Assembly (NCBI GenBank): GCA_030697645.1 | Contig: JAUYPI010000015.1 | Location: 15,583-79,582, forward strand | Reading direction: 5' to 3' | DNA: 64,000 nucleotides | Source of the DNA: a bacterium | GTDB lineage: Bacteria > Patescibacteriota > Minisyncoccia > Phycocordibacterales > VMGT01 | Shown here: positions 3,376 to 64,000 of the stretch, piece after piece | Layout of the letters: the number at the start of each line of letters is the position of its first letter | Position numbering within the stretch: position 1 is the stretch's first letter | Position numbers and translations under genes: made by a program | The notes under the pieces: model-generated | Databases searched by the model: none | What the model was told of the DNA's origin: nothing | The model's input: only the letters and a program-made list of their open reading frames with translations

Positions 3376-4479
3376 TTAATAGAAAAGAGTTCTAAAAACT
3401 GGCTGGAACAGGCTGGTGTCTTTCCGACACGCGACCCGGAAGTCACAGCTCGGGCAATTGGGCTCCACGAGCTCGGGGCAGTAGGAACGTGCTCGCCAAA
3501 GCGCGTGATCCACAAATGCCATCACACGCCTTAGACGTGGGAGCCGGGCTCGCACAATCGTGGCAAGCGTATGGACGGCCTGATATGTCGCCCGGCGGAT
3601 CGCTTCCTCGATCGTTGCGGTGACAAAGAGTCGGGCACTATTTGCGGTGCGGAGTACTTTCGCGAGTAGCACCATGCCGCTCCTGAGGCAGACGCGCATG
3701 ATGTGGTAGTCAATGATCGGCCGCAGGTCTTCCCTCTCTGCCGGGACGAGAAAACGCTCGGGCCGCGAAATCATCTCCATCGCAAAGAGCCCGATTTTTT
3801 TTTGGAGCGGGTCCTCCCAAAAACCGGGGACCCACGAGAAGAGCCGATACAATGCTGCGAGCGGCTGTGCAGCGAGGTTTGCGACTTCGATCATTTTTTT
3901 CGGGCTGTTGAGGCCCGACAGTGCGGCACGAAAGTATGCGCCATAGCGGTGCGTGAGCGCGACGCGTGCCTCGATGTCAGGAAACGGCATGGGACCAAGA
4001 TCATCCGAGAGGAGATGCTGGATCGCAACGCCGCTCATGTGCGCGAGGCGGTAGGGCTCGAAGATGCCGCGGTCGCGGTCAAATTCCTGTTTGAGTGCCG
4101 CGAAGAGCAAGGCTGACCCGCGGTACTCTTTGCCTCTGATGTGGCCGGTGATGGGACTCTCATAGCGGCCGTCGCTTGCATACCAAAACCCGTGGTTTTG
4201 AACACAGCTGAATGCGAAAAAGTTTACTGCCTCACTGTCGCCTAGCCCCGGGAAGAGGTCGGCGGCGTAGGTGCGGACGCCATTTTTCTCGGAGCTGTGA
4301 AAGTCCATGCCGCCGCCGCTCTCCGGTATCGGCATCGAGCACAAGACATTTGCAATTTTTTCAATCCGTCGCGGGTTGGTTCGCGCGAGCATGGGTATCT
4401 CCTTGTGGACCGGAACGTCTTGGGTGTTCGATTCTGATGAGACAATAGCCGATTTTTCACCTTCTGACAACCCGCGCAT
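3376..4479 (-). CDS. Hypothetical protein, possibly DUF2419 / queuosine-salvage (Qng1)-like
   Basis: 367-aa ORF with consistent codon usage. Weak resemblance to Qng1 signature segments (SFW..G.Y.G..AL.AA, IDYHIMRV). The C-terminal Cys cluster CPELVEPNCPSCDFRVAC is not typical of Qng1. The family assignment is from memory, not a search. Confidence 0.4.
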   Translation of the reverse strand: MRGLSEGEKSAIVSSESNTQDVPVHKEIPMLARTNPRRIEKIANVLCSMPIPESGGGMDFHSSEKNGVRTYAADLFPGLGDSEAVNFFAFSCVQNHGFWYASDGRYESPITGHIRGKEYRGSALLFAALKQEFDRDRGIFEPYRLAHMSGVAIQHLLSDDLGPMPFPDIEARVALTHRYGAYFRAALSGLNSPKKMIEVANLAAQPLAALYRLFSWVPGFWEDPLQKKIGLFAMEMISRPERFLVPAEREDLRPIIDYHIMRVCLRSGMVLLAKVLRTANSARLFVTATIEEAIRRATYQAVHTLATIVRARLPRLRRVMAFVDHALWRARSYCPELVEPNCPSCDFRVACRKDTSLFQPVFRTLFY

Positions 4480-6616: not shown

Positions 6617-6733
6617 CTCAAAAATTTTCAATTATCAATTTTATAATTTTTAATCAATTTTCAATTACTCAATTTTCAAACACGACGTCGTCCGTTATTG
6701 AAAATTGAAAATTGTAAATTGAAAATTATCACC
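6617..6733. repeat. Hairpin-array element (arm AATTTTCAAT / ATTGAAAATT, core CAAACACGACGTCGTCCGTT)
   Basis: Fills the whole pilM-pilN intergenic region and ends 3 nt before the ATG at 6734. The core contains the palindrome ACGACGTCGT. Confidence 0.8.
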
Positions 6734-7399: not shown

Positions 7400-7514
7400 C
7401 TCAATTATCAATGTTCAATTTTAAATTTTCAATCAATTTTCAATTACCAAATTTTCAAACACGACGTCGTCCGTTATTGAAAATTGAAAATTGTAAATTG
7501 AAAATTAATAATCC
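7400..7514. repeat. Hairpin-array element (same arm and core as 6617..6733)
   Basis: caattatcaatgttcaattttaaattttcaatcaattttcaattacc - caaacacgacgtcgtccgtt - attgaaaattgaaaattgtaaattgaaaatt. Ends 7 nt before the pilO ATG. Confidence 0.8.
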
Positions 7515-8136: not shown

Positions 8137-8328
8137 ATGAAAATTTTCAATTTTCAATTTTGCAATTTTCAATCAATTTCCAAGTACTCAATTTTCAAAC
8201 ACGACGCCGTTCGTCATTAAGTCATTGCAGCATTGAAAATTTATTGAAAATTGTAAATTGAAAATTATGAACACCGGCGCTTGGTTTGACATTTGAGTTT
8301 GCTCCAATTTCGGATTTTAATTTGTTGT
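8137..8328. repeat. Hairpin-array element (AATTTTCAAT family)
   Basis: aattttcaattttcaattttgcaattttcaatcaatttccaag... core caaacacgacgccgttcgtcatt ... attgaaaatttattgaaaattgtaaattgaaaatt. Ends at the ATG of the next gene. Confidence 0.75.
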
Positions 8329-10731: not shown

Positions 10732-11121
10732 ATGAGCGAAAATGAAAAACAAAAAAAGCAACTCCTGCTTATTGATGACGATGAGTTTCTCATTGATATG
10801 TACTCCACGAAGTTTACGGGGGCAGGGTTCGCTGTTATGGCGATGCGGAGCGTAGATGAGGCCCTCGGGAAGCTGCGTGAAGGGTACACACCTGCCATTA
10901 TCCTTCTTGATCTTGTCATGCCCACGGTTGGCGGCATTGCATTTTTGAAAGCGAGGCGAGATGAGCGCCTTGCGCCTGATGCGGTCGTCATTGTGCTCTC
11001 AAATCAGAGTGATGAGGCGCGCATCGAGGAGGCGAAGAAGCTTGGGGCGAAGGGATATATTTTGAAAGCGAACACCGTACCGTCGGAGGTATTAGAGCAG
11101 GTGCAGGCGCTTGCGGGTTAA
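10732..11121 (+). CDS. Single-domain response regulator (CheY/PilH-like receiver)
   Basis: 129 aa with receiver-domain acidic pocket residues (LLIDDDE...LLDLVMP) and a conserved K near the C-terminus. Sits between pilB and pilT. Confidence 0.7.
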   Translation: MSENEKQKKQLLLIDDDEFLIDMYSTKFTGAGFAVMAMRSVDEALGKLREGYTPAIILLDLVMPTVGGIAFLKARRDERLAPDAVVIVLSNQSDEARIEEAKKLGAKGYILKANTVPSEVLEQVQALAG

Positions 11122-11232
11122 TTTTCAATGCTCAATTTTCAATCAATTTACAATGGTCCAATTTTCAAACACGACGTCGTTCATCTATTGAAACATTGAA
11201 AATTGAAAATTAGAAATTGAAAATTTTCGTCT
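11122..11232. repeat. Hairpin-array element (AATTTTCAAT family)
   Basis: ttaattttcaatgctcaattttcaatcaatttacaatggtcc - aattttcaaacacgacgtcgttcatct - attgaaacattgaaaattgaaaattagaaattgaaaatt. Ends 9 nt before the pilT ATG. Confidence 0.8.
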
Positions 11233-12359: not shown

Positions 12360-12531
12360 GCACGAGAAATTTTCAATTTCCAATTTTCAATTTCCAATCA
12401 ATTTTTAATTACTCAATTTTCAAACACGTCGTCGCCATTGAGTCATTGAAGCATTGAAAATTTATTGAAAATTGCTCATTGAAAATTGAAAATTAAAAAT
12501 GTCTGCCTTTGGTTTCCCCCTTTAGCATTTC
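12360..12531. repeat. Hairpin-array element (AATTTTCAAT family)
   Basis: gaaattttcaatttccaattttcaatttccaatcaatttttaattactcaattttcaaacacgtcgtcgccattgagtc ... attgaaaatttattgaaaattgctcattgaaaattgaaaatt. Confidence 0.75.
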
Positions 12532-14812: not shown

Positions 14813-14860
14813 CTCACCTATACCGTCGCGGCTTGCTCGGCGGTTCGTGATTAAATTTTT

Positions 14861-14902
14861 GCATTTGCAATAACTCTGCGATCGCAGAGTTATTGCAAAT
14901 GC
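14861..14902. promoter_or_regulatory. 42-bp perfect palindrome GCATTTGCAATAACTCTGCG-AT-CGCAGAGTTATTGCAAATGC (GCGATCGC centre)
   Basis: Perfect dyad between the secF stop and gmhA. A near-identical copy lies at 40032..40073. It could be an operator or a terminator stem. Confidence 0.5.
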
Positions 14903-15025
14903 CACAAGTGACCACGCGTTGCTTTTCGCGTTTGCTTTTAGAGAGCGCAGCTGCTACTCTGCCTCATAGGTTGACCTTTTTTAAGATATATACGAGCCGA
15001 AACAACGAGACGAGGAGGAGAGCCC

Positions 15026-20582: not shown

Positions 20583-20764
20583 AGCTAGGCGGTGTCTTCA
20601 AGGCATGCGCGCGAGAGTTCTTTGACAACAGAATAAGCATACACACAAGACAAAGCAAAAACAAAACGTCTATTCCTTAAAAAAACAGAGAGCAGAAGAA
20701 GTTGTTCCTTCTTTTGTTCCGTCCACAAATAGGGAGGTTGGAGATACTCCAACTTCTATAATTT

Positions 20765-20803
<39 letters not shown>

Positions 20804-20851
20804 GATAAGGCATGCAAGTCATACGGGCCGCACCTCATTGCATTCGGTGCG

Positions 20852-20990
20852 GAATTTTCAATTTTCAATTTTACAATTTTCAAATAATTTCCAATGATTA
20901 AATTTCCAATTTCCAAACACGACGTCGTCGGCGTTTGAAAATTGACCCATTGAAAATTTATTGAAAATTGAAAATTGATAATTGAAAATT
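20852..20990. repeat. Hairpin-array element (AATTTTCAAT family) inserted in the 16S V1 helix
   Basis: Same arm unit and core (caaacacgacgtcgtcggcgtt) as the pil intergenic copies. Flanked by hairpins ccgcacctcattgcattcggtgcgg and gccgcaccgagtgtggcgaggtgcggc. Confidence 0.8.
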
Positions 20991-21190
20991 CCGCCGCACC
21001 GAGTGTGGCGAGGTGCGGCTAGTGGCGAACGAGGCAGTAATACGCAGGAACGTACCCTGGAGACGGGCATAACCAGCCGAAAGGTTGGCTAATTCCCGAT
21101 GGTCCGAGCACATATTTTTGGAGAAAAACAAAAGGCGCATCCTGTACCTGTATAGATACTTTGGATGCGCCCTGCAACATTGAGCGGTTT

Positions 21191-21310
21191 CTAGAGGAAC
21201 AGGAAAGTAGCAATCATTACGGCGATGATACCGACTAAGACCCAAGACATCCAACGAAGCTGACTTGGGCCATAGTCTATTCTTCCGCTCTGTCCTCTCG
21301 CGATTTTCAT
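21191..21310 (-). CDS. Candidate 39-aa single-TM peptide antisense to the 16S V2 insertion
   Basis: aggaggTCGTCatg SD-ATG, then MKIARGQSGRIDYGPSQLRWMSWVLVGIIAVMIATFLFL. It is below the 60-aa cut-off of the ORF track. Coordinates are approximate to a few nt. Confidence 0.3.
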   Translation of the reverse strand: MKIARGQSGRIDYGPSQLRWMSWVLVGIIAVMIATFLFL

Positions 21311-22157
21311 GACGACCTCCTTTTTCGCTGAAGAAAGAAAAGCATAGGGGTCTATATATTGTCAAGTATCTTACTTGGCTTCCAAAAATATGTGCTCGGT
21401 AAAGGAGCAATCTGCTCCGGGAGCGGCCTGCGGGCTATCAGCTAGTTGGTGGGGTAACGGCCTACCAAGGCTCTGACGGCTAGGGGGGGTGAGAGCCCGA
21501 TCCCCGCCGATGACACTGCGACACGGGTCATACACCTACGGGTGGCAGCAGCCGAGAATATTCGACAATGGGCGAAAGCCTGATCGAGCGACGCCGCGTG
21601 GTGGATGAAGCACTTCGGTGCGTAAACACCTTTTATGAGGGAAGAAGTTCGCCGCACCTCATTGCATTCGGTGCGGACATTTCGATATATCGAAATTTCG
21701 AAATATCGAAATGTCCGCCGCACCGAGTGCAGCGAGGTGCGGCGGATTGACGGTACCTCATGAATAAGGGGCTCCTAATCACGTGCCAGCAGGAGCGGTA
21801 ATACGTGAGCCCCAAGCGTTATCCGGAATCACTGGGCGTAAAGGGTGTGTAGGCGGCCGCGTTAGTCCTCCGTTAAATCCCACGGCTCAACCGTGGAGCT
21901 GCGGAGGATACGGCGCGGCTTGAGGGCGCGAGAGGTGTGCGGAACTCACGGTGTAGGGGTGAAATCCGTTGATATCGTGGGGAACACCAAAAGCGAAGGC
22001 AGCACACTGGCGCGCCCCTGACGCTGAAACACGAAAGCGTGGGTAGCGAAGCAGATTAGATACCTGCGTAGTCCACGCCCTAAACTCTGTCCGCTAGCTT
22101 TTCGGAGTATCGACCCTCTGGGAGGCGAAGCTAACGCGTTAAGCGGACCGCCTGGGA

Positions 22158-22189
<32 letters not shown>

Positions 22190-22722
22190 AGACGGGGACC
22201 AGCACAAGCGGTGGATCATGTGGTTCAATTCGATGGTAAACGAAGAACCTCACCAGGGCTTGAAATCCAGATGAACTCGCCTCGAAAGGGGTGCGGCCTT
22301 CACAAGAGGCATCTGGACAGGTGCTGCATGGTTGTCGTCAGTTCGTGGCTTAAGTTGTTCCCTTTAGTGGGGTAACGAACGCAACCCCCGTCGCCTGTTA
22401 TACGTGTCAGGCGAGACTGCCCAGCCCAAAGTGCGGCTCACTTCGGTTCGCCGCAGAATCAAGAAGTATGAAGTATGAAGTATGGAAATGTACGAAGAAA
22501 AACCATAATTCATGATTCATAATTCTTGCTTCTGCATCGAGCGGAGCGAGATGCATTTCGGGCTGGGAGGAAGGCGGGGATGACGCCAAATCAGCATGGC
22601 CCTCTGACGCCCTGGGCTACACACGTGATACAATGGCCGGTACAACGGGTCGCGACGGGGTAACCCTGAGCCAATCCTTATAAAGCCGGCCTCAGTTCGG
22701 ATTGAGGTCTGCAACTCGACCT

Positions 22723-22757
<35 letters not shown>

Positions 22758-23610
22758 TATACTGCGGTGAATACGTTCTCTGGTCTTGTACTCACCGCCC
22801 GTCATGCTAAGGGAGCCGGGAATACCCGAAACCCCGCCCTTTGCTCGCGGAGCAAAGGGCGGGATATATCGAAATTTTGAAATATCGATATGTCCCGCCC
22901 TTTGTTCACTTCGTGAACAAAGGGCGGGGTTACGGTAAGCTCGGTGACAGGAGCAAAGTCGTTGAGACATACTGTCTTGTTGCGACCTATGTGAGCGATC
23001 ACATAGTAAAACCCAACTGATATCGGTGAACCCCAGCGTACACAATTCACAATTTCTAATTTCAATTTTGAATTAGTCATTGAGAATTCGTAGTTGCGCC
23101 AGCTGGGCAATACCGAGGGAAGCCCACTAGGAGCTAGTTTTTTAACTGGTAACTAGTTGCGGCCCCGTAGAGACTTCCTGCACTTTTCTAGAAGTAGAAG
23201 GCGCAGGGGATGGCGTTGAAAAATTCACGCTATAAAACGTTGGCCCCAGCCGTAAAGTTTCCTAAAGAAACATTACGGCTGGGTGAAGATATAGTCCGTG
23301 CCTCAATGTAAATTGAGGGTAACACATGAACAAGGCACCGGTAGCGGAAGCTGTTGGTGGAATCATTCCTAGATCCCGTCCCAAGGCGCGTAAAGCGCGC
23401 CATGTTTAAATATTTAAATGTTTAAACATGGCCAAAATTCGCTTTGCGAATTTTGGCGAGGACTGATCAGGTCGGTCCGAGGGTGGAAGTTTTTCTTCCA
23501 TTCCTCGGAATCATGCTGTGGCTGTCAGCTAAACCAGCTAGCGGAGTTAGATGCAAATTTAGCTTCCAACCGTGGACGGAACAAAAGAGGGAACAAAAAA
23601 CACTCAAAAA

Positions 23611-23902: not shown

Positions 23903-25276
23903 ATGGTTTCGAAATTAAAGTTCTTGGTCGCAGTATTGCTGATGATTGGTCTTGGTCTGCCCATGTCTATGGTGGCAGCCCCGGCGCCAGATGCAGTGTC
24001 TGTCCTTATTTTGGACAGCACAGTAAGCGGAGGGGCTCTATCGCGTGAGGCAGTACTCGCTGCCGCGAACGGGTTCACAGTGGTAGTTGACAGCGCCGCG
24101 GCCTGGGGCGCGAGAACTATGGCTGAATTCGCGACCTTTAGGGCGATCATTCTCGGTGATGCGACGTGCACGGGCGTTGGCGCGGTGGCCGCCGCCGAAG
24201 CAAACAAGGCAGTGTGGGGGCCAGCGATAGATGGCAACGTGATTATCAACGGTACGGACCCGGTATTTCACCAGGGCCAAGGCGGGGATGCGCTTACCGA
24301 AGGCAGCATTAAGTTTGCGGCTGATGAGCCAACTAAGACAGGCGCCTACATCAGTCTGAGCTGCTATTATGCCGGTGCAGCCTCTGGCACACCCGCGCCT
24401 GTGTTGGATCCTTTTGGCAGTTTTACGGTCGTTGGTCAGGGTGGATGCCCCGCAGATTCGCACATCGTGGCAGTGCACCCGGCGCTTGCTGGGATTACTG
24501 ATGCCAGCCTGTCAAACTGGGGTTGTTCTACCCACAACGGGTTTGTGACGTATCCGGCGGACTTCCTCGTTCTTGCTATTTCCGAGGATATCCCTTCAAC
24601 CTATGTGGCGCCTGATGGATCGACTGGCGCCCCCTATATTCTCGCGCGTGGTGAGACGCTCTCGCCGATTCTGTGCGGGAACGGGATTCTGGAGATGACC
24701 GAGGAGTGCGACGACGGTAACGTTGTCAACGGAGATGGATGTTCTGCCCAGTGCAAGATTGAGGTCTATGTACCTGCGTGCGGGAACGGAATCCTTGATT
24801 CAGGCGAGCAGTGCGACGACGGAAACCTGCTGAATGGGGACGGATGTTCGGATGTCTGTAAGTTCGAGAACCAAGACCCCGATTGTAAGAGCGCGTATCC
24901 TGATCCGGCGACCCTTTGGCCACCGAATCATAAGTACGTGACCGTTTCTGTTCTCGGTGTCACGGATCCTGACGGCGATGCAGTCGTTGTCATGGTGAAC
25001 AGCGTGACGCAGGACGAGCCAGTAAATGGTCTCGGTGACGGCGACACCTCGCCCGATGCCGTGATTAATTCTGACGGTACAGTCAAGGTTCGCGCCGAAC
25101 GCTCCGGAACCCCAAAGGTACCAGGTGATGGACGAGTCTATCACATTGGTTTCATGGCGGAAGACGGCATGGGCGGCAAGTGCGCCGGGACTGTCTTAGT
25201 GTGCGTGCCCCACGACATGGGACAGGGCAGCGTCTGTGTAGACGGCGGACCGCTGTATGACTCGCTCATGCCGTAG
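23903..25276 (+). CDS. Secreted protein: signal peptide, N-terminal domain, two myxo-type cysteine-rich repeats, shared C-terminal domain
   Basis: Signal peptide MVSKLKFLVAVLLMIGLGLPMSMVAAPA. Two C-x-N-G-x-L-E/D-x-x-E-x-C-D-D-G-N-x-x-N-G-D-G-C-S repeats (TIGR02232-like; family from memory). A C-terminal ~130-aa domain (WPPNHK...VTDPDGD...GTPKVPGDGRVYH...VCVPHDMGQGSVCVDGGPLYDSLMP) is shared with 25712..27766. Confidence 0.6.
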   Translation: MVSKLKFLVAVLLMIGLGLPMSMVAAPAPDAVSVLILDSTVSGGALSREAVLAAANGFTVVVDSAAAWGARTMAEFATFRAIILGDATCTGVGAVAAAEANKAVWGPAIDGNVIINGTDPVFHQGQGGDALTEGSIKFAADEPTKTGAYISLSCYYAGAASGTPAPVLDPFGSFTVVGQGGCPADSHIVAVHPALAGITDASLSNWGCSTHNGFVTYPADFLVLAISEDIPSTYVAPDGSTGAPYILARGETLSPILCGNGILEMTEECDDGNVVNGDGCSAQCKIEVYVPACGNGILDSGEQCDDGNLLNGDGCSDVCKFENQDPDCKSAYPDPATLWPPNHKYVTVSVLGVTDPDGDAVVVMVNSVTQDEPVNGLGDGDTSPDAVINSDGTVKVRAERSGTPKVPGDGRVYHIGFMAEDGMGGKCAGTVLVCVPHDMGQGSVCVDGGPLYDSLMP

Positions 25277-25711: not shown

Positions 25712-27766
25712 ATGTTACGACATTATGTAGCGACTGTTTTGGTTGTAGTGATGGCGCTTGTTGCGCCATTGCAATCGGCTCTCGCGGGCCATCTCACCGG
25801 TACTCCGGCAACGTACACGCTCGATGCAGACTTCGACGAGGGCACCCTCGTGAACGTCAACCATACTGATGTGACTGATCAACTTCAGCTCAACAGTGTA
25901 GCTAAGCCATTTGGTTTCATTTGGATCGCCGCATCCGATCGTGGAACGGTGATCAAGATTAACACAGTGACTGGCGCAATTCTCGGCGAATATCGGACTG
26001 CACCTGCAGGCCGCGCGCTTAACCCGTCTCGGACTACCGTTGACAGCAATGGCAGTGTCTGGGCAACAAACCGCAACGAAGGCGACTTTGTCGCAGCCAA
26101 CGCCATTTCACCAGGTATTCCAGCCGCAGGTGGCGGCATGGGTTCTGTCGTCCACATCGGCCTTGAAGAAAACGGGCAGTGTGTGGATCGAAACGGCAAT
26201 GCTGTTATTGATACGTCCGCGGGACTTGGCGATATTAAGCCATGGCTAAACGGCGGCGGTGTTGATAATCTTGGCGGTGTCTCAACCGCCGAGGACGAGT
26301 GTATTATTCACTACACGCGTGTCAACTCAACCTTTTCCCGGCATGTGTCTGTTAATACCAGCAACAATGTGTGGGTCTCTGGCATCGGGGATCGGAACTT
26401 CGACCTCGTTGACGGTGCGACTGGCATGATCATTAGTCAACAGCCATCCGTCGGCTTCGGGGGCTATGGCGGTTTGATTGACGGCGCAGGTGTTATCTGG
26501 TCTGCGCGGCCACTCCTGCGCTGGGATACGGCGCTTCCTTTAGTGGGGCCAAATGGGGATCCTGCGGGATTTAGCATCGGTCCGCCAGCGCCTGCAACCA
26601 ATTGGTCCGGCCAAGGTGCGCCTGATAGTTATGGGCTCTGCATTGACCCATCTGGCAATGTCTGGAATACGCGCTTGTTCGGAAATGCGATTGACAAGTA
26701 CGCGCCGGACGGCACACACCTCGGCACATTTGCCCATGGAAATGGTGAAGCGCAGGGCTGTGTCGCAGACACGAGTGGCCATATCTGGGTTGCACATTCT
26801 TTATTCGGTGCGACCACTGTTGGTCATTTACTGAATGACGGCACCTACGTGGGGAACGTGCCTCTTCCGGGAGGTGTCGGCCCAACTGGTCTTGCCGTGG
26901 ATGCGGCTGGAAAAATTTGGTCTGCTAATATTAGCTCCAATAACGCCTCACGGATTGATCCCTCGTTGGGACCTATCGGTGGAGGCGGAGTTCCTGTCGG
27001 TGCCGTAGACATGACGGTCGCGCTCGGTGCGGGCGCAGGTCCGTATAATTATTCCGACATGACCGGCAGCACCCTGATTGCTGCGCCGAACAATGGCACA
27101 TGGACGATCGTTCATGATAGCGGTGTCGTCGGGCAAGAGTGGGGCAAGGTGAGCTGGACTGCTTCCACGCCGTCCGATAGCATGCTGACGGTGACGGTTG
27201 CGAGTAGTGGCGACGGTTTGATCTTTGGACCTCCGGAAGCCGCGACGAATGGCGGCGATCTGTCGGTCGCGAACGGACAGTATGTGAAGGTGGTCGTGAG
27301 CTTTACGCGCGCGACGACCGGCGAGAGTCCTATCTTGTATGACTTAAGTCTCTCAACGAACGAAGCTCCCGACTGCGACGGTGCCTATGCGGACCCAGGC
27401 GTAATCTGGCCGCCGAATCACAAAATGGTGCCGCTTACAATAAGCGGCGTGACGGATCCTGATGGCGATCCGGTCGTGATCATAGTGACAGGTATCATGC
27501 AGGACGAGCCGACGAACACGCTTGGCGATGGCAACACCGAAGTTGATGGCGCTATTGACATGAGTGGCATGGCTTCTGTTCGTGCCGAACGCACCGGAAC
27601 CCCCAAAGTACCGGGTGACGGACGAGTCTACCATGTGACCTTCGAAGCTGATGATGGCAATGGTGGAAAATGCTCCGGTGTTGCACGGGTCTGCGTACCC
27701 CACGACATGGGACAGGGCAGCGTCTGTGTAGACGGCGGACCGCTGTATGACTCGCTCATGCCATAA
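25712..27766 (+). CDS. Secreted protein: signal peptide, beta-propeller-like repeat region, shared C-terminal domain
   Basis: Signal peptide MLRHYVATVLVVVMALVAPLQSALA. Repeated G-x-h-W-x-x-N blades (NGSVWATN, SGNVWNTR, SGHIWVAH, AGKIWSAN) resembling NHL / SMP-30-type propellers. The final ~130 aa are paralogous to 23903..25276, and the last 25 aa are identical. Confidence 0.6.
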   Translation: MLRHYVATVLVVVMALVAPLQSALAGHLTGTPATYTLDADFDEGTLVNVNHTDVTDQLQLNSVAKPFGFIWIAASDRGTVIKINTVTGAILGEYRTAPAGRALNPSRTTVDSNGSVWATNRNEGDFVAANAISPGIPAAGGGMGSVVHIGLEENGQCVDRNGNAVIDTSAGLGDIKPWLNGGGVDNLGGVSTAEDECIIHYTRVNSTFSRHVSVNTSNNVWVSGIGDRNFDLVDGATGMIISQQPSVGFGGYGGLIDGAGVIWSARPLLRWDTALPLVGPNGDPAGFSIGPPAPATNWSGQGAPDSYGLCIDPSGNVWNTRLFGNAIDKYAPDGTHLGTFAHGNGEAQGCVADTSGHIWVAHSLFGATTVGHLLNDGTYVGNVPLPGGVGPTGLAVDAAGKIWSANISSNNASRIDPSLGPIGGGGVPVGAVDMTVALGAGAGPYNYSDMTGSTLIAAPNNGTWTIVHDSGVVGQEWGKVSWTASTPSDSMLTVTVASSGDGLIFGPPEAATNGGDLSVANGQYVKVVVSFTRATTGESPILYDLSLSTNEAPDCDGAYADPGVIWPPNHKMVPLTISGVTDPDGDPVVIIVTGIMQDEPTNTLGDGNTEVDGAIDMSGMASVRAERTGTPKVPGDGRVYHVTFEADDGNGGKCSGVARVCVPHDMGQGSVCVDGGPLYDSLMP

Positions 27767-34943: not shown

Positions 34944-35351
34944 TTGCGCTATTTGTGTAGCCGGGGTTTCGCAGCAAGCAGCAAGCGCCAAGCAATAAGC
35001 ACGGACGGTACATTTGTGTTTGCCGCTTGTTCGATGGTGCTTACTGCTCGGACAACTATGCACAAAGCCCTCCAGCTTCTCCGCCTCATCCCTCGCGGCA
35101 GAGTGGTGACCTACAAAGAGCTCGCGCGCGCCTGCGGCACCTCGCCGCGCGCCGTGGGACGGATACTTGCAGGGAATAAAGAGCCAGCGAAGTATCCTTG
35201 CTACAAAGTCGTCTCTTCGCGAGGCGCGCTCACGGGCTACAGCGCCCCGGGCGGCCTCACTCGTAAGCGCGAGCTCCTCGAGCGCGACGGCGCCACCTTC
35301 GCTCGAGACGGCCGCGTGCTGCCGGAGCATTTTTATCGTTTTGAAGAATGA
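34944..35351 (+). CDS. Methylated-DNA-protein-cysteine methyltransferase DNA-binding-domain protein (Ogt/MGMT C-terminal domain only)
   Basis: HTH VVTYKELARACG and active-site-like YPCYKVV (consensus PCHRV), with the Cys retained. The real start is probably internal (MHKALQLL, about 35058), giving about 98 aa. Confidence 0.5.
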   Translation: MRYLCSRGFAASSKRQAISTDGTFVFAACSMVLTARTTMHKALQLLRLIPRGRVVTYKELARACGTSPRAVGRILAGNKEPAKYPCYKVVSSRGALTGYSAPGGLTRKRELLERDGATFARDGRVLPEHFYRFEE

Positions 35352-36448
35352 GCAGTGATCTTAAACCTAAAGTATTCGTCGCGATGTCTGGGGGCGTGGA
35401 CAGCTCTCTCGCGGCGGCGCTTCTTCAGGAGCGCGGGTTTGACGTGCATGGAGCGTTCATCATGACGTGGCAGATTCCGGGCTTGCCATGCAGCGCGGCC
35501 GAGGACCGTCGCGACGCGATGCGCGTCGCGGCGAAGCTCAACATTCCATTCCATACATTTGATTTCGCCGAGGAGTACAAGCGCGGCGTTGTGGACTACA
35601 TGCTCCGCGAGTATGCGGCAGGGCGGACGCCGAACCCGGACGTGATGTGCAATAAAGAGATTAAGTTCGGTGCGTTTCTGCGGAAGACGCGGGAGATGGG
35701 GGCGGAGTACATGGCGACGGGGCACTATGCGCGCTTAGAAAGAATCAAGAATCATGAATCAAGAATCATGAATCGACTCCTCATGTCCAAAGATACAAAC
35801 AAAGATCAGACGTACTTTCTTTGGATGCTGGGGCAGGAGGCGCTCTCGCGCACACTGTTTCCGATCGGCGATTATCTGAAGAGCGAGGTACGGGAGATGG
35901 CGCGGGAGCGGGGGTTGATCACGGCTGACAAACGAGATAGTCAAGGGCTTTGCTTCCTCGGCAAGATTGACGTGCGGGCATTTCTCGCTCGGCACTTGGG
36001 AGCGAAGGAAGGCAGCGTGCTTGATGCCGCGAGCGGTAAGGCGATCGGGGTTCATGCAGGAGCGGCGCTCTATACGCTCGGACAGCGGCACGGCTTTAGG
36101 GTTGAACACGAAACACCCCGGAGCGAGCCGCTCTATGTCGTGTCGCGCGACATTGCCGCGAATACGATTACGGTCGCGTCGCGAGCGGCCGTACTTCGCG
36201 TTCCCTCTGCGCGTTGCGAAGTTGATCTCGGTATATGCAACTGGATCGGCGAGGCGCCGGAGGCAGGCGGTGTCTACCTCGCCCGTATCAGACACCGCGG
36301 CGAGCTTATGCCGTGTCGAATTGAGCCATTTGAGCGAGATATGAGCCGCACACGAGTGCTTTTTGAAACGCCACTCCTCGCCGCCTCCGGCCAGTCGCTC
36401 GTGCTCTATGAAGGAGAGCGCGTCGTTGGAGGAGGGGTGATTGGATGA
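35348..36448 (+). CDS. mnmA: tRNA-specific 2-thiouridylase MnmA
   Basis: PP-loop VAMSGGVDSS and downstream MnmA blocks. Contains an in-frame insertion of a short tandem repeat (35740..35772) encoding IKNHESRIMNR. Confidence 0.85.
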   Translation: MSSDLKPKVFVAMSGGVDSSLAAALLQERGFDVHGAFIMTWQIPGLPCSAAEDRRDAMRVAAKLNIPFHTFDFAEEYKRGVVDYMLREYAAGRTPNPDVMCNKEIKFGAFLRKTREMGAEYMATGHYARLERIKNHESRIMNRLLMSKDTNKDQTYFLWMLGQEALSRTLFPIGDYLKSEVREMARERGLITADKRDSQGLCFLGKIDVRAFLARHLGAKEGSVLDAASGKAIGVHAGAALYTLGQRHGFRVEHETPRSEPLYVVSRDIAANTITVASRAAVLRVPSARCEVDLGICNWIGEAPEAGGVYLARIRHRGELMPCRIEPFERDMSRTRVLFETPLLAASGQSLVLYEGERVVGGGVIG

Positions 36449-45107: not shown

Positions 45108-48100
45108 ATGGTAAAAAAGGTGGCACAAAAAAAGGCAAAGAAAGCCGTACAAAAACGTGCGGGAAAAATGAAAACGGCAAAGCCGGGGAATGGCTACGGC
45201 GCCGATCAGATCCAGGTGCTCGAGGGCCTCGAGCCGGTGCGCCGCAGGCCCGGCATGTACATCGGCACGACCGGGCCCGACGGCCTGCATCATCTGGTCG
45301 TCGAGGTGTTTGACAACTCGCGCGACGAGGCGATGGCGGGCTTTGGCGGCGACATCGAGCTTGCGCTTCTCCCGGGTAACCGCGTGCGCGTTGTGGACAA
45401 CGGCCGCGGCATTCCGGTGGAACGCCATCCGCAGACCAAAGTTTCGACACTTGAAACCGTGATGACGACGCTCCATGCGGGAGGCAAGTTCGGCTCCGGC
45501 GGCTACACGGTGAGCGGCGGGCTCCATGGCGTCGGCGTCTCGGTCGTGAACGCGCTCTCGGAGCGGCTCCGCGCCGAGGTGCACCGCGACGGCAGCGCTC
45601 ACGCGCAGGAGTACCGCCGCGGCGAGCCGCTCGCGGCGGCGAAGCGCATCGGCGCGTCGGAGCGCACTGGCACTATCATTACCTTCGAGCCGGACGCAAC
45701 CGTATTTAAAGACGGCATCAGTTTTGACTGGAAGCGCATCGTGGACCACATGCGCCAACAGGCGTACCTCGTGAAAGGAATGCGTATTACGCTCCTTGAT
45801 GCGCGCGCGTATGAGGGGAAGTTCGATGACCAAAAAGTGTTCTACCTGCGTGATCTCGGGCTCGATCTCCCCTCGACGTCGTTTTACTTTGAAGGTGGCC
45901 TGCTCTCGCTCGTACGGTTTTACAATCAGTCGGAGAAGCCGGTGCACAAGAGCATTTTTTATATTGAAAAAGAAGCGCGCGCGCTCGGCGTCGAGTCTGT
46001 GGAAATTGCGTTTCAGTACGTGGACGATATCTCGTACCGCATCCTCGCGTTTGCGAATAATACGTTCAACGGCGAGGGCGGCACACATCTTACCGGCTTC
46101 AAGGGCTCGCTCACTCGCACGCTGAATAGCTACGCGCGCGCGAACAATCTTCTCAAGGAGAAAGACGAAAATTTCACCGGCGAGGACGTGCTCGAGGGGC
46201 TCACCGCGGTGATTAGCGTGAAGCTCCGCGAGATACAGTTTGAAGGGCAGACGAAGGCAAAGCTCGGCTCAGTCGAGGCGCGTACGGCGCTTGAGGGCGT
46301 GATGAACGAGGCGCTTTCGAATTTTCTTGAGGAGAATCCGGACGAAGCGCGCGCGATCATCGGCAAAGTTTCGCTTGCGATGCGGGCGCGGAAAGCCGCG
46401 AAAGCCGCAAAAGACAGCGTGCTCCGCAAAGGCGCGCTCGAGGGCATGACGCTTCCGGGCAAGCTCGCCGACTGTCAGAGCAAAAAGCGCGAGGAGACGG
46501 AACTTTTCGTGGTGGAAGGCGACAGCGCCGGAGGATGTTGGAGTGGAGATACAAAGGTGGCGTTAGCTGACGGACGACATCTTAGCTTTTTAGAGTTGGT
46601 TAAAGAGCATGAGGAAGGCAAGCAGAATTTTTGTTACACCATGCAGGAAAACGGACATATCGGTTTAGCACCAATCGAAAGTCCGAGACGGACGAAACAA
46701 AATGCCGACGTGATTAAGGTGACTCTCGACACAGGCGATGACCTTCTTTGTACCCCCGACCACCTCTTTCGACTCGTGGACGGTAGTTACATTCCTGCGT
46801 ACAACCTAACGTCAAGCCACAGTTTAGCGCCCCTGTATCGCAAAATATCAAAAAAGGGAGAAGGAACACAACTGAACGGGTACGAGATGGTTTTTGACCC
46901 TCAAGCACATAAATGGATGCCAACCCATATTCTTGCTGATATATATAATTTGAAAAAAAACGTCTATGTAACAACTGATGGTAACCACCGGCATCATTTT
47001 GATTTTAATAAGAGGAATAATAATCCGACGAACATTAAACGAGTAACGTATGAGCAGCACATGGCGTACCACCATGCCTACATAGAAAGGACGTTACATC
47101 GTCCTGATGTTAAGCAGAAATCTATTGACTCAAAACGTATCGCGGAGTTTCGTGAACGTGCGAGGGCAAAGTCGCTCGAAAAGCGCGAGCTTTTTAGTGA
47201 GAATGCAAAACGACAGTGGCAGGATGAGGACTATAAGACGTATATGGTCCAAAAATTTCTCGATTACTATTCGAGTAACGAATCGTATCGTAAGCGCAAT
47301 AACGCTCTGCTCGATAAAGCGCAGCGTGAATATTGGAGCGATAACGAAAATCGTCGTGTGCAGTCCGATCGCGTGCGTGTGTTTTTCGAAGCACATCCGG
47401 AACGGAAAGCGTGGTTGTCGCGAGAAGCGAAGCGGCAATGGGACAGCGAATCGCTGCGCGCATGGCGGGGTGAGACAACGCGCCTACAATGGACTCCGGC
47501 GTTTCGTGAAAAACGTCGGGAGGCGTACAACGAGACCTATCTACGTAAGGCGCTCGGTGTCTTGCATGAGCTCTACGCGGAAAACGGCACCATCGATTAT
47601 GCGCGCTATAACGCGCTTCGCAGAGAACGAAATGACCGGAGCATTATTCGCCACGACACAATATGCGAGCGATTTTTTGACGGCGACATGGGACGTATGG
47701 AGGAGGCAGTGGTGAATTATAACCACCGCATCGTAAGGATTGAGCGGCTTGAGGAGCCGATGGATGTTTATGATCTTGAGGTCCCCGGCACGCACAACTT
47801 CGCGCTTGCATCGGGCGTGTTCGTCCACAATAGCGCAAAAATGGCGCGGGACCGGGTAACACAGGCGATTCTGCCGCTCTTCGGCAAGGTGCTCAATGCC
47901 GAGCGCGCGCGGCTTGATAAAATTTTGGCATCGGACAAATTCCGCGCGCTTGTGATCGCGCTCGGCACGGGGATCGGCGAGGGGGTTGATCTCGAGAAGC
48001 TCCGCTACGGCCGCATCATCATCATGGCCGATGCGGACGTTGACGGGTCGCACATCAAGACGCTCTACCTTACCTTTTTTTATCGCCAGCTGCGCGACAT

Positions 48101-48575
48101 TATCGAGCGCGGGCACCTCTACATCGCCGTGCCGCCGCTCTATAAAATTACGCGAGGCAAAGAGGCGCACTACGTGTTTACCGATGACGAGAAGGCGGCG
48201 TATCTCAAAAAACTCGGCGTTGCGATTGATGACGTCTCGGAGCTTGAAGAGGAAGGGGAGGATGGAGAAGGGGATGCGGCTGCGGGCGGCGAGGCACCCG
48301 GAGGCGGAGAGCGCGAGGCAGGAGGAAGCGCGGAAGAGGGAAAACCGAAGAAAACCCCAAAGGTCTCGGTCCAGCGCTACAAGGGCCTCGGCGAGATGAG
48401 CGCGGACGAGCTCTGGGAGACCACGATGGACCCGGCGAGCCGCCTGCTTCACCATGTGATGATCGAGGATGCCGCCGAGGCGGACAAAGTCTTTGACATC
48501 CTCATGGGCACCGATGTTCCGGCGCGCAAAAGTTTTATCCAGAGCAACGCGAAATTGGCGAATCTTGATATATAG
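45108..48575 (+). CDS. gyrB: DNA gyrase subunit B, interrupted by an intein
   Basis: GHKL ATPase N-terminus, then LFVVEGDSAGG | intein | SAKMARDRVTQAILPLFGKVLN, and the Toprim and C-terminal domains (IIIMADADVDGSHI...YKGLGEMS). Has a Lys-rich N-terminal extension. Confidence 0.9.
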   Translation: MVKKVAQKKAKKAVQKRAGKMKTAKPGNGYGADQIQVLEGLEPVRRRPGMYIGTTGPDGLHHLVVEVFDNSRDEAMAGFGGDIELALLPGNRVRVVDNGRGIPVERHPQTKVSTLETVMTTLHAGGKFGSGGYTVSGGLHGVGVSVVNALSERLRAEVHRDGSAHAQEYRRGEPLAAAKRIGASERTGTIITFEPDATVFKDGISFDWKRIVDHMRQQAYLVKGMRITLLDARAYEGKFDDQKVFYLRDLGLDLPSTSFYFEGGLLSLVRFYNQSEKPVHKSIFYIEKEARALGVESVEIAFQYVDDISYRILAFANNTFNGEGGTHLTGFKGSLTRTLNSYARANNLLKEKDENFTGEDVLEGLTAVISVKLREIQFEGQTKAKLGSVEARTALEGVMNEALSNFLEENPDEARAIIGKVSLAMRARKAAKAAKDSVLRKGALEGMTLPGKLADCQSKKREETELFVVEGDSAGGCWSGDTKVALADGRHLSFLELVKEHEEGKQNFCYTMQENGHIGLAPIESPRRTKQNADVIKVTLDTGDDLLCTPDHLFRLVDGSYIPAYNLTSSHSLAPLYRKISKKGEGTQLNGYEMVFDPQAHKWMPTHILADIYNLKKNVYVTTDGNHRHHFDFNKRNNNPTNIKRVTYEQHMAYHHAYIERTLHRPDVKQKSIDSKRIAEFRERARAKSLEKRELFSENAKRQWQDEDYKTYMVQKFLDYYSSNESYRKRNNALLDKAQREYWSDNENRRVQSDRVRVFFEAHPERKAWLSREAKRQWDSESLRAWRGETTRLQWTPAFREKRREAYNETYLRKALGVLHELYAENGTIDYARYNALRRERNDRSIIRHDTICERFFDGDMGRMEEAVVNYNHRIVRIERLEEPMDVYDLEVPGTHNFALASGVFVHNSAKMARDRVTQAILPLFGKVLNAERARLDKILASDKFRALVIALGTGIGEGVDLEKLRYGRIIIMADADVDGSHIKTLYLTFFYRQLRDIIERGHLYIAVPPLYKITRGKEAHYVFTDDEKAAYLKKLGVAIDDVSELEEEGEDGEGDAAAGGEAPGGGEREAGGSAEEGKPKKTPKVSVQRYKGLGEMSADELWETTMDPASRLLHHVMIEDAAEADKVFDILMGTDVPARKSFIQSNAKLANLDI
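46536..47831 (+). mobile_element. Intein in GyrB (432 aa) with no recognisable LAGLIDADG/HNH block
   Basis: Starts C-W-S-G-D-T-K-V (block A) and ends VFVHN followed by extein Ser. The middle carries KRQW/REYW-type tandem repeats. Its first ~550 nt are markedly more AT-rich than the flanking gyrB. Confidence 0.8.
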
Positions 48576-48879: not shown

Positions 48880-49518
48880 TTAGTATTTGATTTTCACCAT
48901 GTCCCCGTAGTCAATGTCGGCGATGTCGGCATACTCAGCGGAGTTTGGGGCGAGGTTTACACCACCCTGCACCACGCTTCCATTTGCCGTCGCCGGAGCA
49001 AATGCGCCTTTGAAGTTTGACTTGACGCTAAATCCCGGCGCCCGGTAGAACGACCGGCTTCCGGTGCGGCTCGCGGAGTCTGTCGCGCTCCAGTCGAGTG
49101 TTATCTCGACCTCGACAGGCGTGTCACTCACATAGTCGTACGCGTTGACCGTCGTTTTGACGCGGGCGCTTGCCAATTTTTTGCCAACCACGAAATCGTC
49201 TGCTGCGATCTCCTGGTACCCGAATATCGACGACAGGTAGATCCACTCGCAGTAGTCGAGGCTGTCGACAAATACAAACACGCTCGACGTTGCCGTTCGC
49301 GGCTCGGGCTTGATGCGCACGACCTGGTCGCTCGCATACACGCCGACATAGGTAACGACACATCCAGTCTCGTCCGTACTTGAAAAGAACGCGGATGCCG
49401 TTTCTCCCCTGACAGAGAATTGCTGGACGTCCGTTTCGGCGCTCGCCTTGGTGGTAAAAGAACCAAAGAGGCACGCCATAACCACAACCGCCGCCAACCA
49501 CTTTACTCTCTGCATCAT
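48880..49518 (-). CDS. Hypothetical secreted protein
   Basis: Signal peptide MMQRVKWLAAVVVMACLFGSFTTKASA and a beta-rich mature region. No recognisable family. Confidence 0.4.
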   Translation of the reverse strand: MMQRVKWLAAVVVMACLFGSFTTKASAETDVQQFSVRGETASAFFSSTDETGCVVTYVGVYASDQVVRIKPEPRTATSSVFVFVDSLDYCEWIYLSSIFGYQEIAADDFVVGKKLASARVKTTVNAYDYVSDTPVEVEITLDWSATDSASRTGSRSFYRAPGFSVKSNFKGAFAPATANGSVVQGGVNLAPNSAEYADIADIDYGDMVKIKY

Positions 49519-49786
49519 TCTGAGTCTCCTTTGGCCACATGACCACAGTGTTTGTTTGTGTACATCGAGACGAGAATCCTGAATCCTGAAGCCGACCGAT
49601 TATGTCTAGCACGGTCTATATGATTTGTCAATGAATTTGGCTACTGCCGAATACTTGGCTCCACGAGCCCCAAAGAACCCGCAACAAGCGCGAAAGTATA
49701 CGAGCGTGCTTACTGCTTATTGCATACTCCTCAGCACTGTTGCCCGGCCTTGGCTGGTTTGATACACTGCGAGTGAAAAGCGCACC

Positions 49787-52715: not shown

Positions 52716-52857
52716 GATGCGATGCGCTTAATTTTCAATTTTCAATTCCAATGAATTTTCAATGTTTCAATGATGCAATGACGGACGACGTCGTGTTTGA
52801 AAATTGGGTAATTGAAAATTGATTGAAAATTGAGCATTGAAAATTTTTCCTTGAGTC
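52716..52857. repeat. Hairpin-array element (AATTTTCAAT family, core in reverse orientation)
   Basis: ttaattttcaattttcaattccaatgaattttcaatg...gcaatgacggacgacgtcgtgtttg...aaaattgggtaattgaaaattgattgaaaattgagcattgaaaatt. Confidence 0.75.
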
Positions 52858-59393: not shown

Positions 59394-59435
59394 GACGAGA
59401 GCGTCGCGGTGGAGTTATCCACACCACTTAAATTT

Positions 59436-59760
59436 TCAAATTATCAATTTTCAATTTCCAATCAATTTTCCAATGACACAATTTTCAAACACGACGTCGT
59501 TCGTCATTGAAATATTAGACCTCTCCAGAAAGTCATTTCTACTGCAATTTTTGGTTTTCGGCTGCGACTTCGTCAGACGTCGCAAAATGATTCTCGCCGT
59601 ACATCCAGTACGCCGTCGAATCATTTTGCTCGTCTTCCTCGTCTCGCTCGAAAACCAAAAATTTCGTCGCGAAATGACTTTTTGGAGAGGTCTATTGAAA
59701 ATTCATTGAAAATTGATAATTGGAAATTGAAAATTATGAGTCCGTTTTGGTGATTATGAT
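59436..59760. repeat. Hairpin-array element (AATTTTCAAT family) carrying a 190-nt internal palindromic cargo
   Basis: Arms and core caaacacgacgtcgttcgtcattgaaat, then a nested palindrome gacctctccagaaagtcatttc...ttttggttttcg...cgaaaaccaaaaa...gaaatgacttttggagaggtc, then attgaaaattcattgaaaattgataattggaaattgaaaatt. Confidence 0.75.
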
Positions 59761-62679: not shown

Positions 62680-62682
62680 GAG

Positions 62683-62839
62683 CCTGTCCACTATCTTGCT
62701 TTCGAGATGAAATTTTCTGATTTTGAGCGAGACGAAGTCAAAAATTGCGAGGAATATCGAGATATTTCGAGAAATTTTTGACAAGTCGCAGCCAAAATCA
62801 GGAAATTTCAGGCCGGAATGAAGATAGTGGATAGGCTCT
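62683..62839. mobile_element. MITE-like element with 18-bp perfect terminal inverted repeats
   Basis: gagcctgtccactatctt ... aagatagtggataggctc flanking about 120 nt of AT-rich non-coding sequence with internal repeats (aaatttttgac / gtcaaaaattg). Confidence 0.55.
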
Positions 62840-63179: not shown

Positions 63180-63764
63180 ATGCAAAAACTCCGCGAAGAA
63201 CAAACGTTTCTCCTGATCAAGCCCGACGGCGTCCGCAAGGGGCTCGTCGGCGAGGTGCTGAAGCGCATCGAGCAGCGCGATCTCAAGATCGTCGCGCTGG
63301 AGATGTTTGCGGCCTCGCGTGAGCAGGTGGACGAGCACTACCCGAAGGACCCTGCGTGGGTGCGCCGCCTCGGCGAGAAGTCGCTCGCGACGTACCACAA
63401 GTACGGCATGGATGCTGCCGCCGAGCTCGGCACGGACGACCCCGACGAGATAGGTAAGATGGTGCGGCGCTGGCTCGTGGACTATATGGTCTCCGCACCG
63501 CTTGTGCGTATGGTTGTGCAGGGTATTCACGCGGTTGACATGGTGCGCAAGATTTGCGGGCCGACGATGCCCTACATCGCCGACATGGGGACAATCCGCG
63601 GCGATTTTTCCGCTGACTCTCCCGCGATTGCAAACAGCGAGAAGCGGGCGGTAATGAACCTCGTGCATGCCTCGGAGACTCCGGAGGAGGCGGCGCACGA
63701 GATCGGATTTTGGTTCGGCGACCGAAAGGCGTTTCAGTACAAACGCTTCGGCATTGATGAATGA
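63180..63764 (+). CDS. ndk: Nucleoside diphosphate kinase (long form)
   Basis: TFLLIKPDGVRKGLVGEVLKRIE and active-site N..H.S block (NLVHASETPEEAAHEIGFWF). Start taken at MQKLREEQ (63180). Confidence 0.75.
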   Translation: MQKLREEQTFLLIKPDGVRKGLVGEVLKRIEQRDLKIVALEMFAASREQVDEHYPKDPAWVRRLGEKSLATYHKYGMDAAAELGTDDPDEIGKMVRRWLVDYMVSAPLVRMVVQGIHAVDMVRKICGPTMPYIADMGTIRGDFSADSPAIANSEKRAVMNLVHASETPEEAAHEIGFWFGDRKAFQYKRFGIDE

Positions 63765-63829
63765 TGGGTAGGGAGGCGAGGGATTTTCAGGCAGTTCCCA
63801 GAGAGCGAGCAGCAGGATTTTTGAAGCAT

Positions 63830-64000
63830 GAATCATGAATTAAGAAGCATGGAGTCCGTTCCCACACTTCATGGTTCACGACCCATGATTCATACTTCAT
63901 GCTCCATACTGCATGACTGCACGTCCCATACTTCATACTTCTTGATTCATGCTTCACGTCCCATGATTCATGCTTCATGATCCATGCTTCAAGTCAGGCA
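63830..64000. repeat. Array of degenerate CATGATTCAT / CTTCATACTTCAT units running to the window edge
   Basis: catgaatcatgaattaagaagcatgg ... ccatgattcatacttcatgctccatactgcatgac ... ccatacttcatacttcttgattcatgcttc ... Same unit family as 22470..22540 and 35740..35772. Confidence 0.6.

Follow-up and report, generated by a model that had tools for sequence, protein, structure and literature searches.

The 16S rRNA genes of bacteria of the Candidate Phyla Radiation (CPR) carry large insertions without explanation, and the locus described here raises the question of whether such an insertion can belong to a repeat family that also lies in protein-coding sequence and in intergenic spacers. The window, a stretch of 64,000 nucleotides (nt) from contig JAUYPI010000015.1 of assembly GCA_030697645.1 (G+C approximately 55%; Patescibacteria, or CPR, of a Paceibacteria-like lineage), contains short tandem repeats in its 16S rRNA gene, in frame in mnmA, near position 49565 and downstream of ndk, and at each of the four the tandem unit is 7 nt long and belongs to the class GAA-(G/T)-(C/T)-A-(T/A), here written GAA-K-Y-A-W. 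An earlier note on this DNA had proposed a common repeat class at these places, all of whose quoted strings are indeed present, and had read it as one hairpin-array-like family that invades both rRNA and coding sequence. Our analysis instead identifies the 16S feature as the tip of an extension of helix 40 (h40) peculiar to the lineage, and the flagged family as one flavour of a genome-wide phenomenon, many other units being found in the hairpins of the window. The arrays probably originate, on balance, in neutral slippage of the DNA in 7-nt steps together with the copying of whole hairpin modules, tolerated where they do no harm.

The only small-subunit rRNA gene of the window gives a bacterial match in Rfam over positions 20758-23009, which amounts to 2252 nt against a model of 1533 positions, and carries inserts in h6, near model position 188, in h17, in h40 and at the tip of h44, in addition to a group I intron. 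In h40, the model helix 1149-1169 has a loop of 4 nt, which is replaced here (Rfam alignment) by 137 nt lying between GAGACUGCC and GGAGGAAGG; these form a G+C-rich outer stem capped by an 81-nt hairpin (22454-22534). This core is an imperfect palindrome with four 7-nt units per arm, so that two heptanucleotide simple-sequence repeats (SSRs) face each other in inverted orientation. The left arm reads as AGAATCA, AGAAGTA, TGAAGTA, TGAAGTA and then TGG, within which Tandem Repeats Finder (TRF) reports 3.1 copies of GAAGTAT at 100% identity (22463-22484), and the right arm contains 3.1 copies of CATAATT at 86% (22504-22525). The arms pair in blocks mostly of 6 base pairs (5 at either end) with one mismatch per 7 nt, first a U.C and then three G.A. 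Folded as RNA the insert reaches -74.5 kcal/mol (z = -9.2), and the hairpin alone, folded as DNA, gives z = -7.7. An intron at h40 was rejected, as Rfam matches nothing at 22428-22559 and its one group I intron match (22954-23318, 51.8 bits) lies near the 3' end of the gene; the intron is bounded at 22963-23328, after AAGUCGU, since the 3' exon (23329-23370) aligns to the nearest relative right after 22962. No specific function is implied for the h40 hairpin, which may either be carried in the rRNA as an expansion segment or be excised as an intervening sequence (IVS). The insert near model position 188 (21103-21420, 318 nt) has long inverted termini (GAGCACATATTTTTGGA...TCCAAAAATATGTGCTC) and no heptamer content.

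Relatives were gathered from metagenomes by scanning for a 34-nt signature of the 16S gene located just downstream of h40; 47 loci were obtained, 43 of them readable. The h39-h40 segment is plain, at 56-57 nt, in 40 of these 43, which upholds the insertion seen by the earlier note, although the alignment puts it in helix 40 and not in the helix 41 region named there. Among the relatives, h40 inserts occur only in L158 (identical to L161, from a different metagenome) and in L163, and those of the window, L158/L161 and L163 all differ and are unrelated in sequence. The nearest 16S relative is L158, whose core blocks are for the most part 95.6-98.7% identical to those of the window and which shows no synteny with it beyond the rRNA leader; every 16S insert differs between the two. 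Heptamer hairpins are also present at helix tips of L158, with TAGCTTN units at h6, GCGAATA at h17 and GCGGATN at both h40 and h44, the last two sites holding one 111-nt GCGGATN-armed module with the centre ACGTCGTCGTACGT, whose copies (L158 9432-9546 and 10518-10632) are identical at 109 of 111 positions. The group I intron of the window is missing from L158 to the base, its flanks being contiguous, and two further large introns are present there (inserts of 618 nt and 659 nt, one with the LAGLIDADG-like motif GLTDGEGCF). Within the gene of the window, the h17 and h44 inserts (21650-21745 and 22826-22935) have in common an inner ATATCGAAAT palindrome of period 8 (GATATATCGAAATTTYGAAATATCGA), and the h6 and h17 inserts a common outer stem, CGCACCTCATTGCATTCGGTGCGG...CCGCCGCACCGAGTG (20828-20865, 20985-21017). 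The architecture of the 16S inserts is nested and modular, with fixed sites, a content that turns over fast and modules that would be copied within the gene. The proteins flanking the 16S region (23903-25276 and 25712-27766), by which other assemblies of it were sought, are not on record.

A period of 7 nt is favoured throughout the window. Exact tandem runs number 15 at period 7 and 2 at period 14, against none at any other period from 3 to 15, and a tolerant scan detected 28 period-7 arrays compared to none in five shuffles. Most of these arrays are inverted pairs, giving approximately 17 long heptamer-armed hairpins, the dominant family of which has AATTTTC-type left arms, GAAAATT right arms and a conserved palindromic centre, CACGACGTCGT, with 20 matches (at most one mismatch) where 1.6 are expected. 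This family occupies spacer after spacer, its right arms stopping 0-15 nt ahead of the next start codon, and one copy lies inside 16S helix 6; folded as RNA, the copies gain stability on the minus strand, and this asymmetry belongs to the individual copy. One of them, the hairpin 59437-59727 with a nested inverted-repeat element (59516-59694), is precisely absent from L001 (GCA_034376905.1; 1262-1263, at a junction of AAATTTT with AAAATTATGAG), an independent contig 99.93% identical to the window, either through a real polymorphism or through assembly collapse. Precise presence and absence was observed for this AATTTTC copy only, the nearest relatives carrying other inserts at h40. Further units forming hairpins in the window include GTAGAAA, AAAGTCA, GACATTT and CAAAACA, among others. 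A cyanobacterial origin, or a relation to the highly iterated palindrome HIP1, was considered and rejected, as GCGATCGC occurs at 5 sites where 5.7 are expected and the MnmA of the window matches Paceibacteria-like CPR. A near-perfect 30-nt palindrome around GCGATCGC is present at 14856-14907.

The counterpart of the h40 hairpin lies in the intergenic spacer beginning 47 nt past the ndk stop codon. The earlier note had described it as an array over the last 170 nt at the edge of the window; the array is there, but its placement at the edge falls away, as it is complete at 63811-63993 (Table 1) and L001, which carries the cluster unchanged and extends past the end of the window, continues directly after it with unrelated sequence. 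Identity in this independent contig also disposes of an assembly artefact, which the note had itself considered. One left arm (63821-63852; TTGAAGCATGAATCATGAATTAAGAAGCATGG) is able to pair with any of three right arms (63866-63899, 63926-63956 and 63961-63992), the units of the cluster being GAAGCAT, GAATCAT, GAATTAA and GAAGTAT; the cluster folds at z = -3.5 and no T-run follows the hairpin. The 16S right arm, as its reverse complement, and the left arm downstream of ndk have an exact 15-mer, ATGAATCATGAATTA, in common, and both hairpins follow the same layout of four units, ATGG, a loop of 16-17 nt, CCAT or TCAT, and four units. The two hairpins, which may be mutual copies or convergent, have unrelated loops and arms approximately 80% alike.

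The mnmA units are in frame, as the earlier note had stated, and encode the residues given in Table 1. TRF reports the array as 2.4 copies of a perfect 14-mer (GAATCAA GAATCAT; 100%, 35740-35774), and there is no second arm; an mRNA hairpin was ruled out, the fold not rising above background (z = -0.95). The hairpin character attributed to the family thus holds for the 16S and ndk-downstream sites but not for mnmA and 49572, whose arrays are one-armed. E. coli MnmA has 5 residues fewer at the array position, and across 115 homologues, Paceibacteria-like, the loop between GHY and KDQ measures 21-77 residues with a mode of 25, against 30 in the window, confirming that the segment is not common to all orthologues. 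Many of the long loops resemble translated heptamer arrays of several unit types, two of which were confirmed in the DNA (AATTTCC-type units in L002 and GAAATCC x3 in L004), and closer relatives have other heptamer units at the array position. GAATNAN-type peptides stand there in four homologues (P0012, P0019, P0078 and P0085), and L003, with an MnmA 55% identical to that of the window, carries GAAAGAATCATGAATCATGAATCAGGAATTAC at the corresponding codons, again built of GAATCAT, in 3-4 copies against 5 in the window (the genomes being distant); this is the only period-7 array across 17.8 kb of L003. That the same unit recurs at the same codons of so distant a protein, in a sequence with no other arrays, argues for recurrent local expansion in mnmA and not for invasion. 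The MnmA loop therefore looks like a hot spot, in which the array of the window would be a local expansion of the seed GAAAGAATCA, most likely an older one, and not an import from the 16S hairpin. Residues 131-143 form the far end of a beta-hairpin with strands 128-134 and 140-146 in an AlphaFold2 model (predicted local distance difference test score, 88.9). The nearest proteins are named Paceibacterota, Parcubacteria, Lloydbacteria and Vogelbacteria, and the MnmA protein with the array is on record from another assembly (P0001).

Other insertions of this general kind were met with in coding sequence. The MnmA loop insert of one homologue (P0003, A1) reads ...SNPGSLWIASSLHCGFAPRKD and resembles a translated G+C-rich palindrome. 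A second CPR case of a heptamer hairpin in frame comes from a 1132-codon open reading frame (ORF) of Moraniibacteriota (L113), which we take, from its sequence alone, to encode a UvrD/PcrA-like helicase; at 3926-4206 it has a GAAGCAT/ATGCTTC hairpin that encodes ...MKHETCNKK...NASCFMLHASCF....

The array near 49565 had been listed among the sites of the hairpin-array-like family, but it has no inverted partner and a different unit (GAATCCT). It lies approximately 55 nt upstream of the ATG of a minus-strand ORF (48880-49518) and none of the ORFs around it, this one included, has a Pfam or NCBIfam match. The pattern (A/C)(T/A)GAA(G/T)(A/C/T) x3, allowing one mismatch, matches exactly the four sites in the window and nothing in 20 shuffles; because it was built from the same four sites, this result shows only the absence of further members.

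The unit class itself is widely distributed. A scan with GAAKYATGAAKYATGAAKYAT over 185,579 species genomes found at least 120 loci, and the hosts among the matches listed include Bacteroidota, Cyanobacteria, Lentisphaerae, Chloroflexi, Spirochaetes (Treponema), Firmicutes and six CPR lineages; of the 120 matches listed, 32 are accompanied by an inverted partner no more than 300 nt away, and 5 fall inside ORFs of 150 codons or more. In viral contigs, more than 119 loci were found compared to 47 for the control, a single scrambled unit, and the genome and viral frequencies are lower bounds. This weakly supports GAA-K-Y-A-W as one of the commoner heptamer repeat units of bacteria and phages and, since the class is widespread, a shared unit is weak evidence for common descent. 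A Saccharimonadales spacer (L117) holds CAGAATCAAGAA...TGCTTCTG, which begins and ends like the h40 hairpin with 81% column identity (CAGAATCAAGAA...CATGCTTCTG), and this pair of arrays hardly pairs (z = -0.7). An invasion of all four sites by one hairpin element is accordingly not supported: the mnmA and 49572 arrays are one-armed, L003 has the unit locally and the class occurs far beyond this lineage.

What we infer for the origin of the arrays begins with replication slippage, which would build and resize them in 7-nt steps while the other arm changes in parallel, as proposed under the name of compensatory slippage for eukaryotic rRNA expansion segments; now and then gene conversion or template switching would place a copy of a whole hairpin module at another site. 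Such products would survive only where an additional stem-loop or a few residues are harmless, namely in intergenic spacers, at solvent-side rRNA helix tips (h6, h17, h40, h44) and on the surface beta-hairpin of MnmA, in which selection would retain in-frame lengths only. Near-perfect internal repeats (GAAGTAT x3.1 and the 14-mer x2.4, both at 100%) are expected for recent slippage, and the h40 hairpin fits the compensatory form in its equal number of units per arm, its near-perfect internal repeats and a mismatch repeated in register. RNA-level selection for pairing is not supported by the folding energies of 17 hairpins on both strands, which reveal no stability gain on the transcribed strand (-31.0 vs -30.0 kcal/mol for h40, and the main AATTTTC family more stable on the non-coding strand), and the lack of such an advantage favours a DNA-level and largely neutral origin. 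Several observations weigh against this account. Slippage alone cannot give 98%-identical 111-nt modules at two helices of L158, nor does it account for the conserved palindromic centre CACGACGTCGT or for hairpin 59437-59727 being missing so precisely from L001, so that a further step is needed that copies or deletes hairpins as wholes. These three features look like the copy-and-paste of discrete elements, and the step may be gene conversion or template switching of the ordinary kind or, alternatively, the work of a system dedicated to mobility. No copy-number polymorphism was seen in the GAAKYAT arrays, L001 being identical over the ndk-downstream cluster, the step size of 7 nt stays without explanation under slippage, and neutrality is an assumption, the position of the main-family hairpins 0-15 nt before start codons hinting at a role in expression.

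The same observations bear on the reading of the arrays as non-autonomous mobile elements, comparable to small dispersed repeats (SDRs), repetitive extragenic palindromic sequences (REP/REPIN) or miniature inverted-repeat transposable elements (MITEs), which an enzyme would insert into hairpin loops and of which the h40 and ndk-downstream hairpins would be two copies. We consider this unlikely, though it accommodates much of what slippage does not: the nested 16S inserts, with their outer stem in h6 and h17 and inner module in h17 and h44, the doubled module of L158, the hairpin present in the window and precisely absent from L001, and the AATTTTC family, which has at least 8 copies, a conserved centre and a strand asymmetry that goes with each copy. 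It would also explain the layout and 15-mer common to the h40 and ndk-downstream hairpins, and the Saccharimonadales arrays that begin and end like the former. Against it, these arrays scarcely pair, the two GAAKYAT hairpins, the only ones in 64 kb, have unrelated loops and arms approximately 80% alike, and likeness over the whole element is found in the AATTTTC family instead. Neither terminal repeats nor target duplications were seen, no transposase turned up in the window, none being specifically searched for, the mnmA and 49572 arrays are one-armed, and arrays of the unit in many phyla and in viruses fit a simple repeat better. We put forward only tentatively, and with some doubt, the bolder proposal that CPR genomes harbour hairpin-loop-seeking micro-elements, heptamer-armed palindromes of which some are CACGACGTCGT-centred, that would copy themselves into the tips of DNA or RNA hairpins already present, build up the large 16S insertions of this radiation by repeated nesting, and seed in-frame peptides in conserved enzymes.

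A function of the repeats as RNA or DNA signals, whether as binding sites of a regulator or as terminator or stabiliser stems, with the h40 copy recruiting a factor to the head of the small subunit, seems improbable. Single-strand binders of the cold-shock (Csp) or S1-like type bind about one heptamer each. The location of main-family hairpins 0-15 nt before start codons recalls that of the TAACTGA heptamers of Beggiatoaceae, which directly precede start codons and have led to the proposal of a post-transcriptional regulator (PMC4679880), and the ndk-downstream cluster lies 47 nt past a stop codon. Signals of this kind are difficult to reconcile with a transcribed strand that has no excess stability, with units that vary among the hairpins and among relatives, with the missing T-run after the ndk-downstream hairpin and with h40 inserts that are unrelated in sequence among relatives. 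Repeats and palindromes are also error-prone in short-read assemblies, and the window and L001 do differ by a whole hairpin (59437-59727), but that the arrays are artefacts of metagenome assembly or chimeras is highly improbable, as the ndk-downstream cluster is identical in L001, the MnmA with the array is known from another assembly, the h40 insert extends an rRNA helix with a paired outer stem and like inserts recur unchanged in L158 and L161, which come from separate metagenomes. Neutral slippage with module copying remains the origin that we prefer.

Table 1. Positions of the heptamer arrays, their parts and the genes that carry or adjoin them, in window coordinates.
Feature	Position	Strand	Basis
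16S rRNA gene	20758..23370	+	Rfam RF00177, 1273.7 bits
Helix-40 extension, 132-nt block without counterpart in nearest relative L158	22428..22559	+	Rfam alignment, fold
h40 left arm, CAGAATC AAGAAGT ATGAAGT ATGAAGT ATGG	22454..22485	+	TRF, fold
h40 apical loop, 17 nt, AAATGTACGAAGAAAAA	22486..22502	+	Fold
h40 right arm, CCAT AATTCAT GATTCAT AATTCTT GCTTCTG	22503..22534	+	TRF, fold
mnmA gene	35348..36448	+	NCBIfam NF001138, 377 bits; PDB 2DER, E 9e-83
One-armed in-frame array (GAATCAA/GAATCAT) x5, residues 131-143 ERIKNHESRIMNR	35739..35774	+	TRF, translation
Short array GAATCCT x2.4, weak member of the unit class	49572..49592	.	TRF (49574-49590)
ndk gene	63180..63764	+	NCBIfam Ndk models; exact protein on L001
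Intergenic hairpin cluster after ndk	63811..63993	+	TRF rows within 63822-63991, fold
AATTTTC-family sites	6620-6730, 7400-7510, 8140-8268, 11118-11228, 12365-12503, 20849-20994, 52727-52847, 59429-59738		

Three further features of the window were recorded. Between a DUF87/TraG-like ORF and ndk lies an inverted repeat (62679-62839) with 47-nt arms that are 83% complementary and 67 nt apart, which is not a heptamer hairpin. The Ndk protein itself (194 residues) matches the family models of approximately 140 residues in two stretches, implying an internal insert of approximately 50 residues that is not built of heptamers. The gyrB gene (45108-48575) is split by an intein, with splicing motifs at residues 477-555 and 886-909 of the 1155-residue product.

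Part of the insert material in CPR 16S genes is suggested by this locus to be non-intronic, made of 7-nt-repeat hairpins that also fill the spacers of the genome. If this is true, the compensatory slippage model of eukaryotic expansion-segment growth would extend to bacteria, and variation in rRNA size, like the low-complexity inserts of CPR proteins, would have a concrete source open to testing. In practice, 16S inserts of this kind are uninformative for phylogeny and can cause 16S-based tools to fail.

The h40 insert resembles an IVS in being a sporadic, lineage-specific stem-loop that replaces the tip of a helix in a conserved rRNA, and we know of no description of an IVS built of heptamer repeats that are common to non-rRNA loci. 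It has the same likeness to the insertions in 16S genes of CPR bacteria that were reportedly described by Brown et al. in 2015; the gene of the window also has a group I intron, and its relatives have introns of the LAGLIDADG type. The small dispersed repeats of Nostoc were reportedly described by Elhai et al. in 2008 as tiny modules with hairpins and heptamer repeats, nested insertions, presence or absence between relatives and a conserved core of 21-27 nt. Unlike these SDRs, the GAAKYAT hairpins share only the class of their arm unit, a conserved core (CACGACGTCGT) being found in the AATTTTC family only.

Eukaryotic expansion segments are thought, according to PMC1888808, which cites Hancock and Dover (1990), to grow by compensatory slippage on both strands of a helix. 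They share with the inserts described here the extension of helix tips, a low-complexity repeat on one strand with its complement on the other, and motifs that recur among the segments of a single rRNA yet change from species to species (PMC1888808); the h40 motif, however, is shared with a non-rRNA locus and not with another helix of the window. The present inserts differ further in being bacterial, in their strict 7-nt period and in having motifs that recur in spacers and in a protein gene. E. coli 16S rRNA accepts engineered insertions in h6, in h17 and at the h39/h40 junction, and insert sites of the window coincide with the insertion-tolerant positions h6/es1, h17/es5 and h39-40/es9 (PMC2441807).

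The closest likeness is to the heptamer SSRs of other bacteria, i.e. the short tandemly repeated repetitive (STRR) sequences of cyanobacteria, GGGAATC of Xanthomonas and TAACTGA of Beggiatoaceae, which likewise consist of tandem 7-nt units that are mostly intergenic, form some inverted pairs, overlap ORFs in a few cases, favour a period of 7 and vary in length and sequence between close relatives (PMC4692102, PMC4679880). According to these two articles, which cite Mrazek (2007), heptameric SSRs are over-represented in many bacteria, which is ascribed to polymerase slippage and to the DNA footprint of the polymerase, and Rehm et al. noted inverted pairs, an ORF overlap of 7-11% and variation between close relatives among heptamer repeats. 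The repeats of the window have the head-to-tail 7-nt units (at least 2-3 copies) and the over-representation of period 7 by which STRR-like sequences are recognised, but unlike those their arrays are mostly complementary pairs that give long hairpins, each with its own unit variant, and copies lie inside 16S helices and a conserved enzyme of a small-genome CPR bacterium. A search of the literature for such heptamer repeats in CPR found no paper describing them. Heptanucleotide simple repeats on the one hand, and helix-tip insertions or expansion segments of rRNA on the other, are already known; what is notable here is the placement of heptamer repeats in the 16S gene and a conserved enzyme of a CPR bacterium, the sharing of modules and their rapid turnover.

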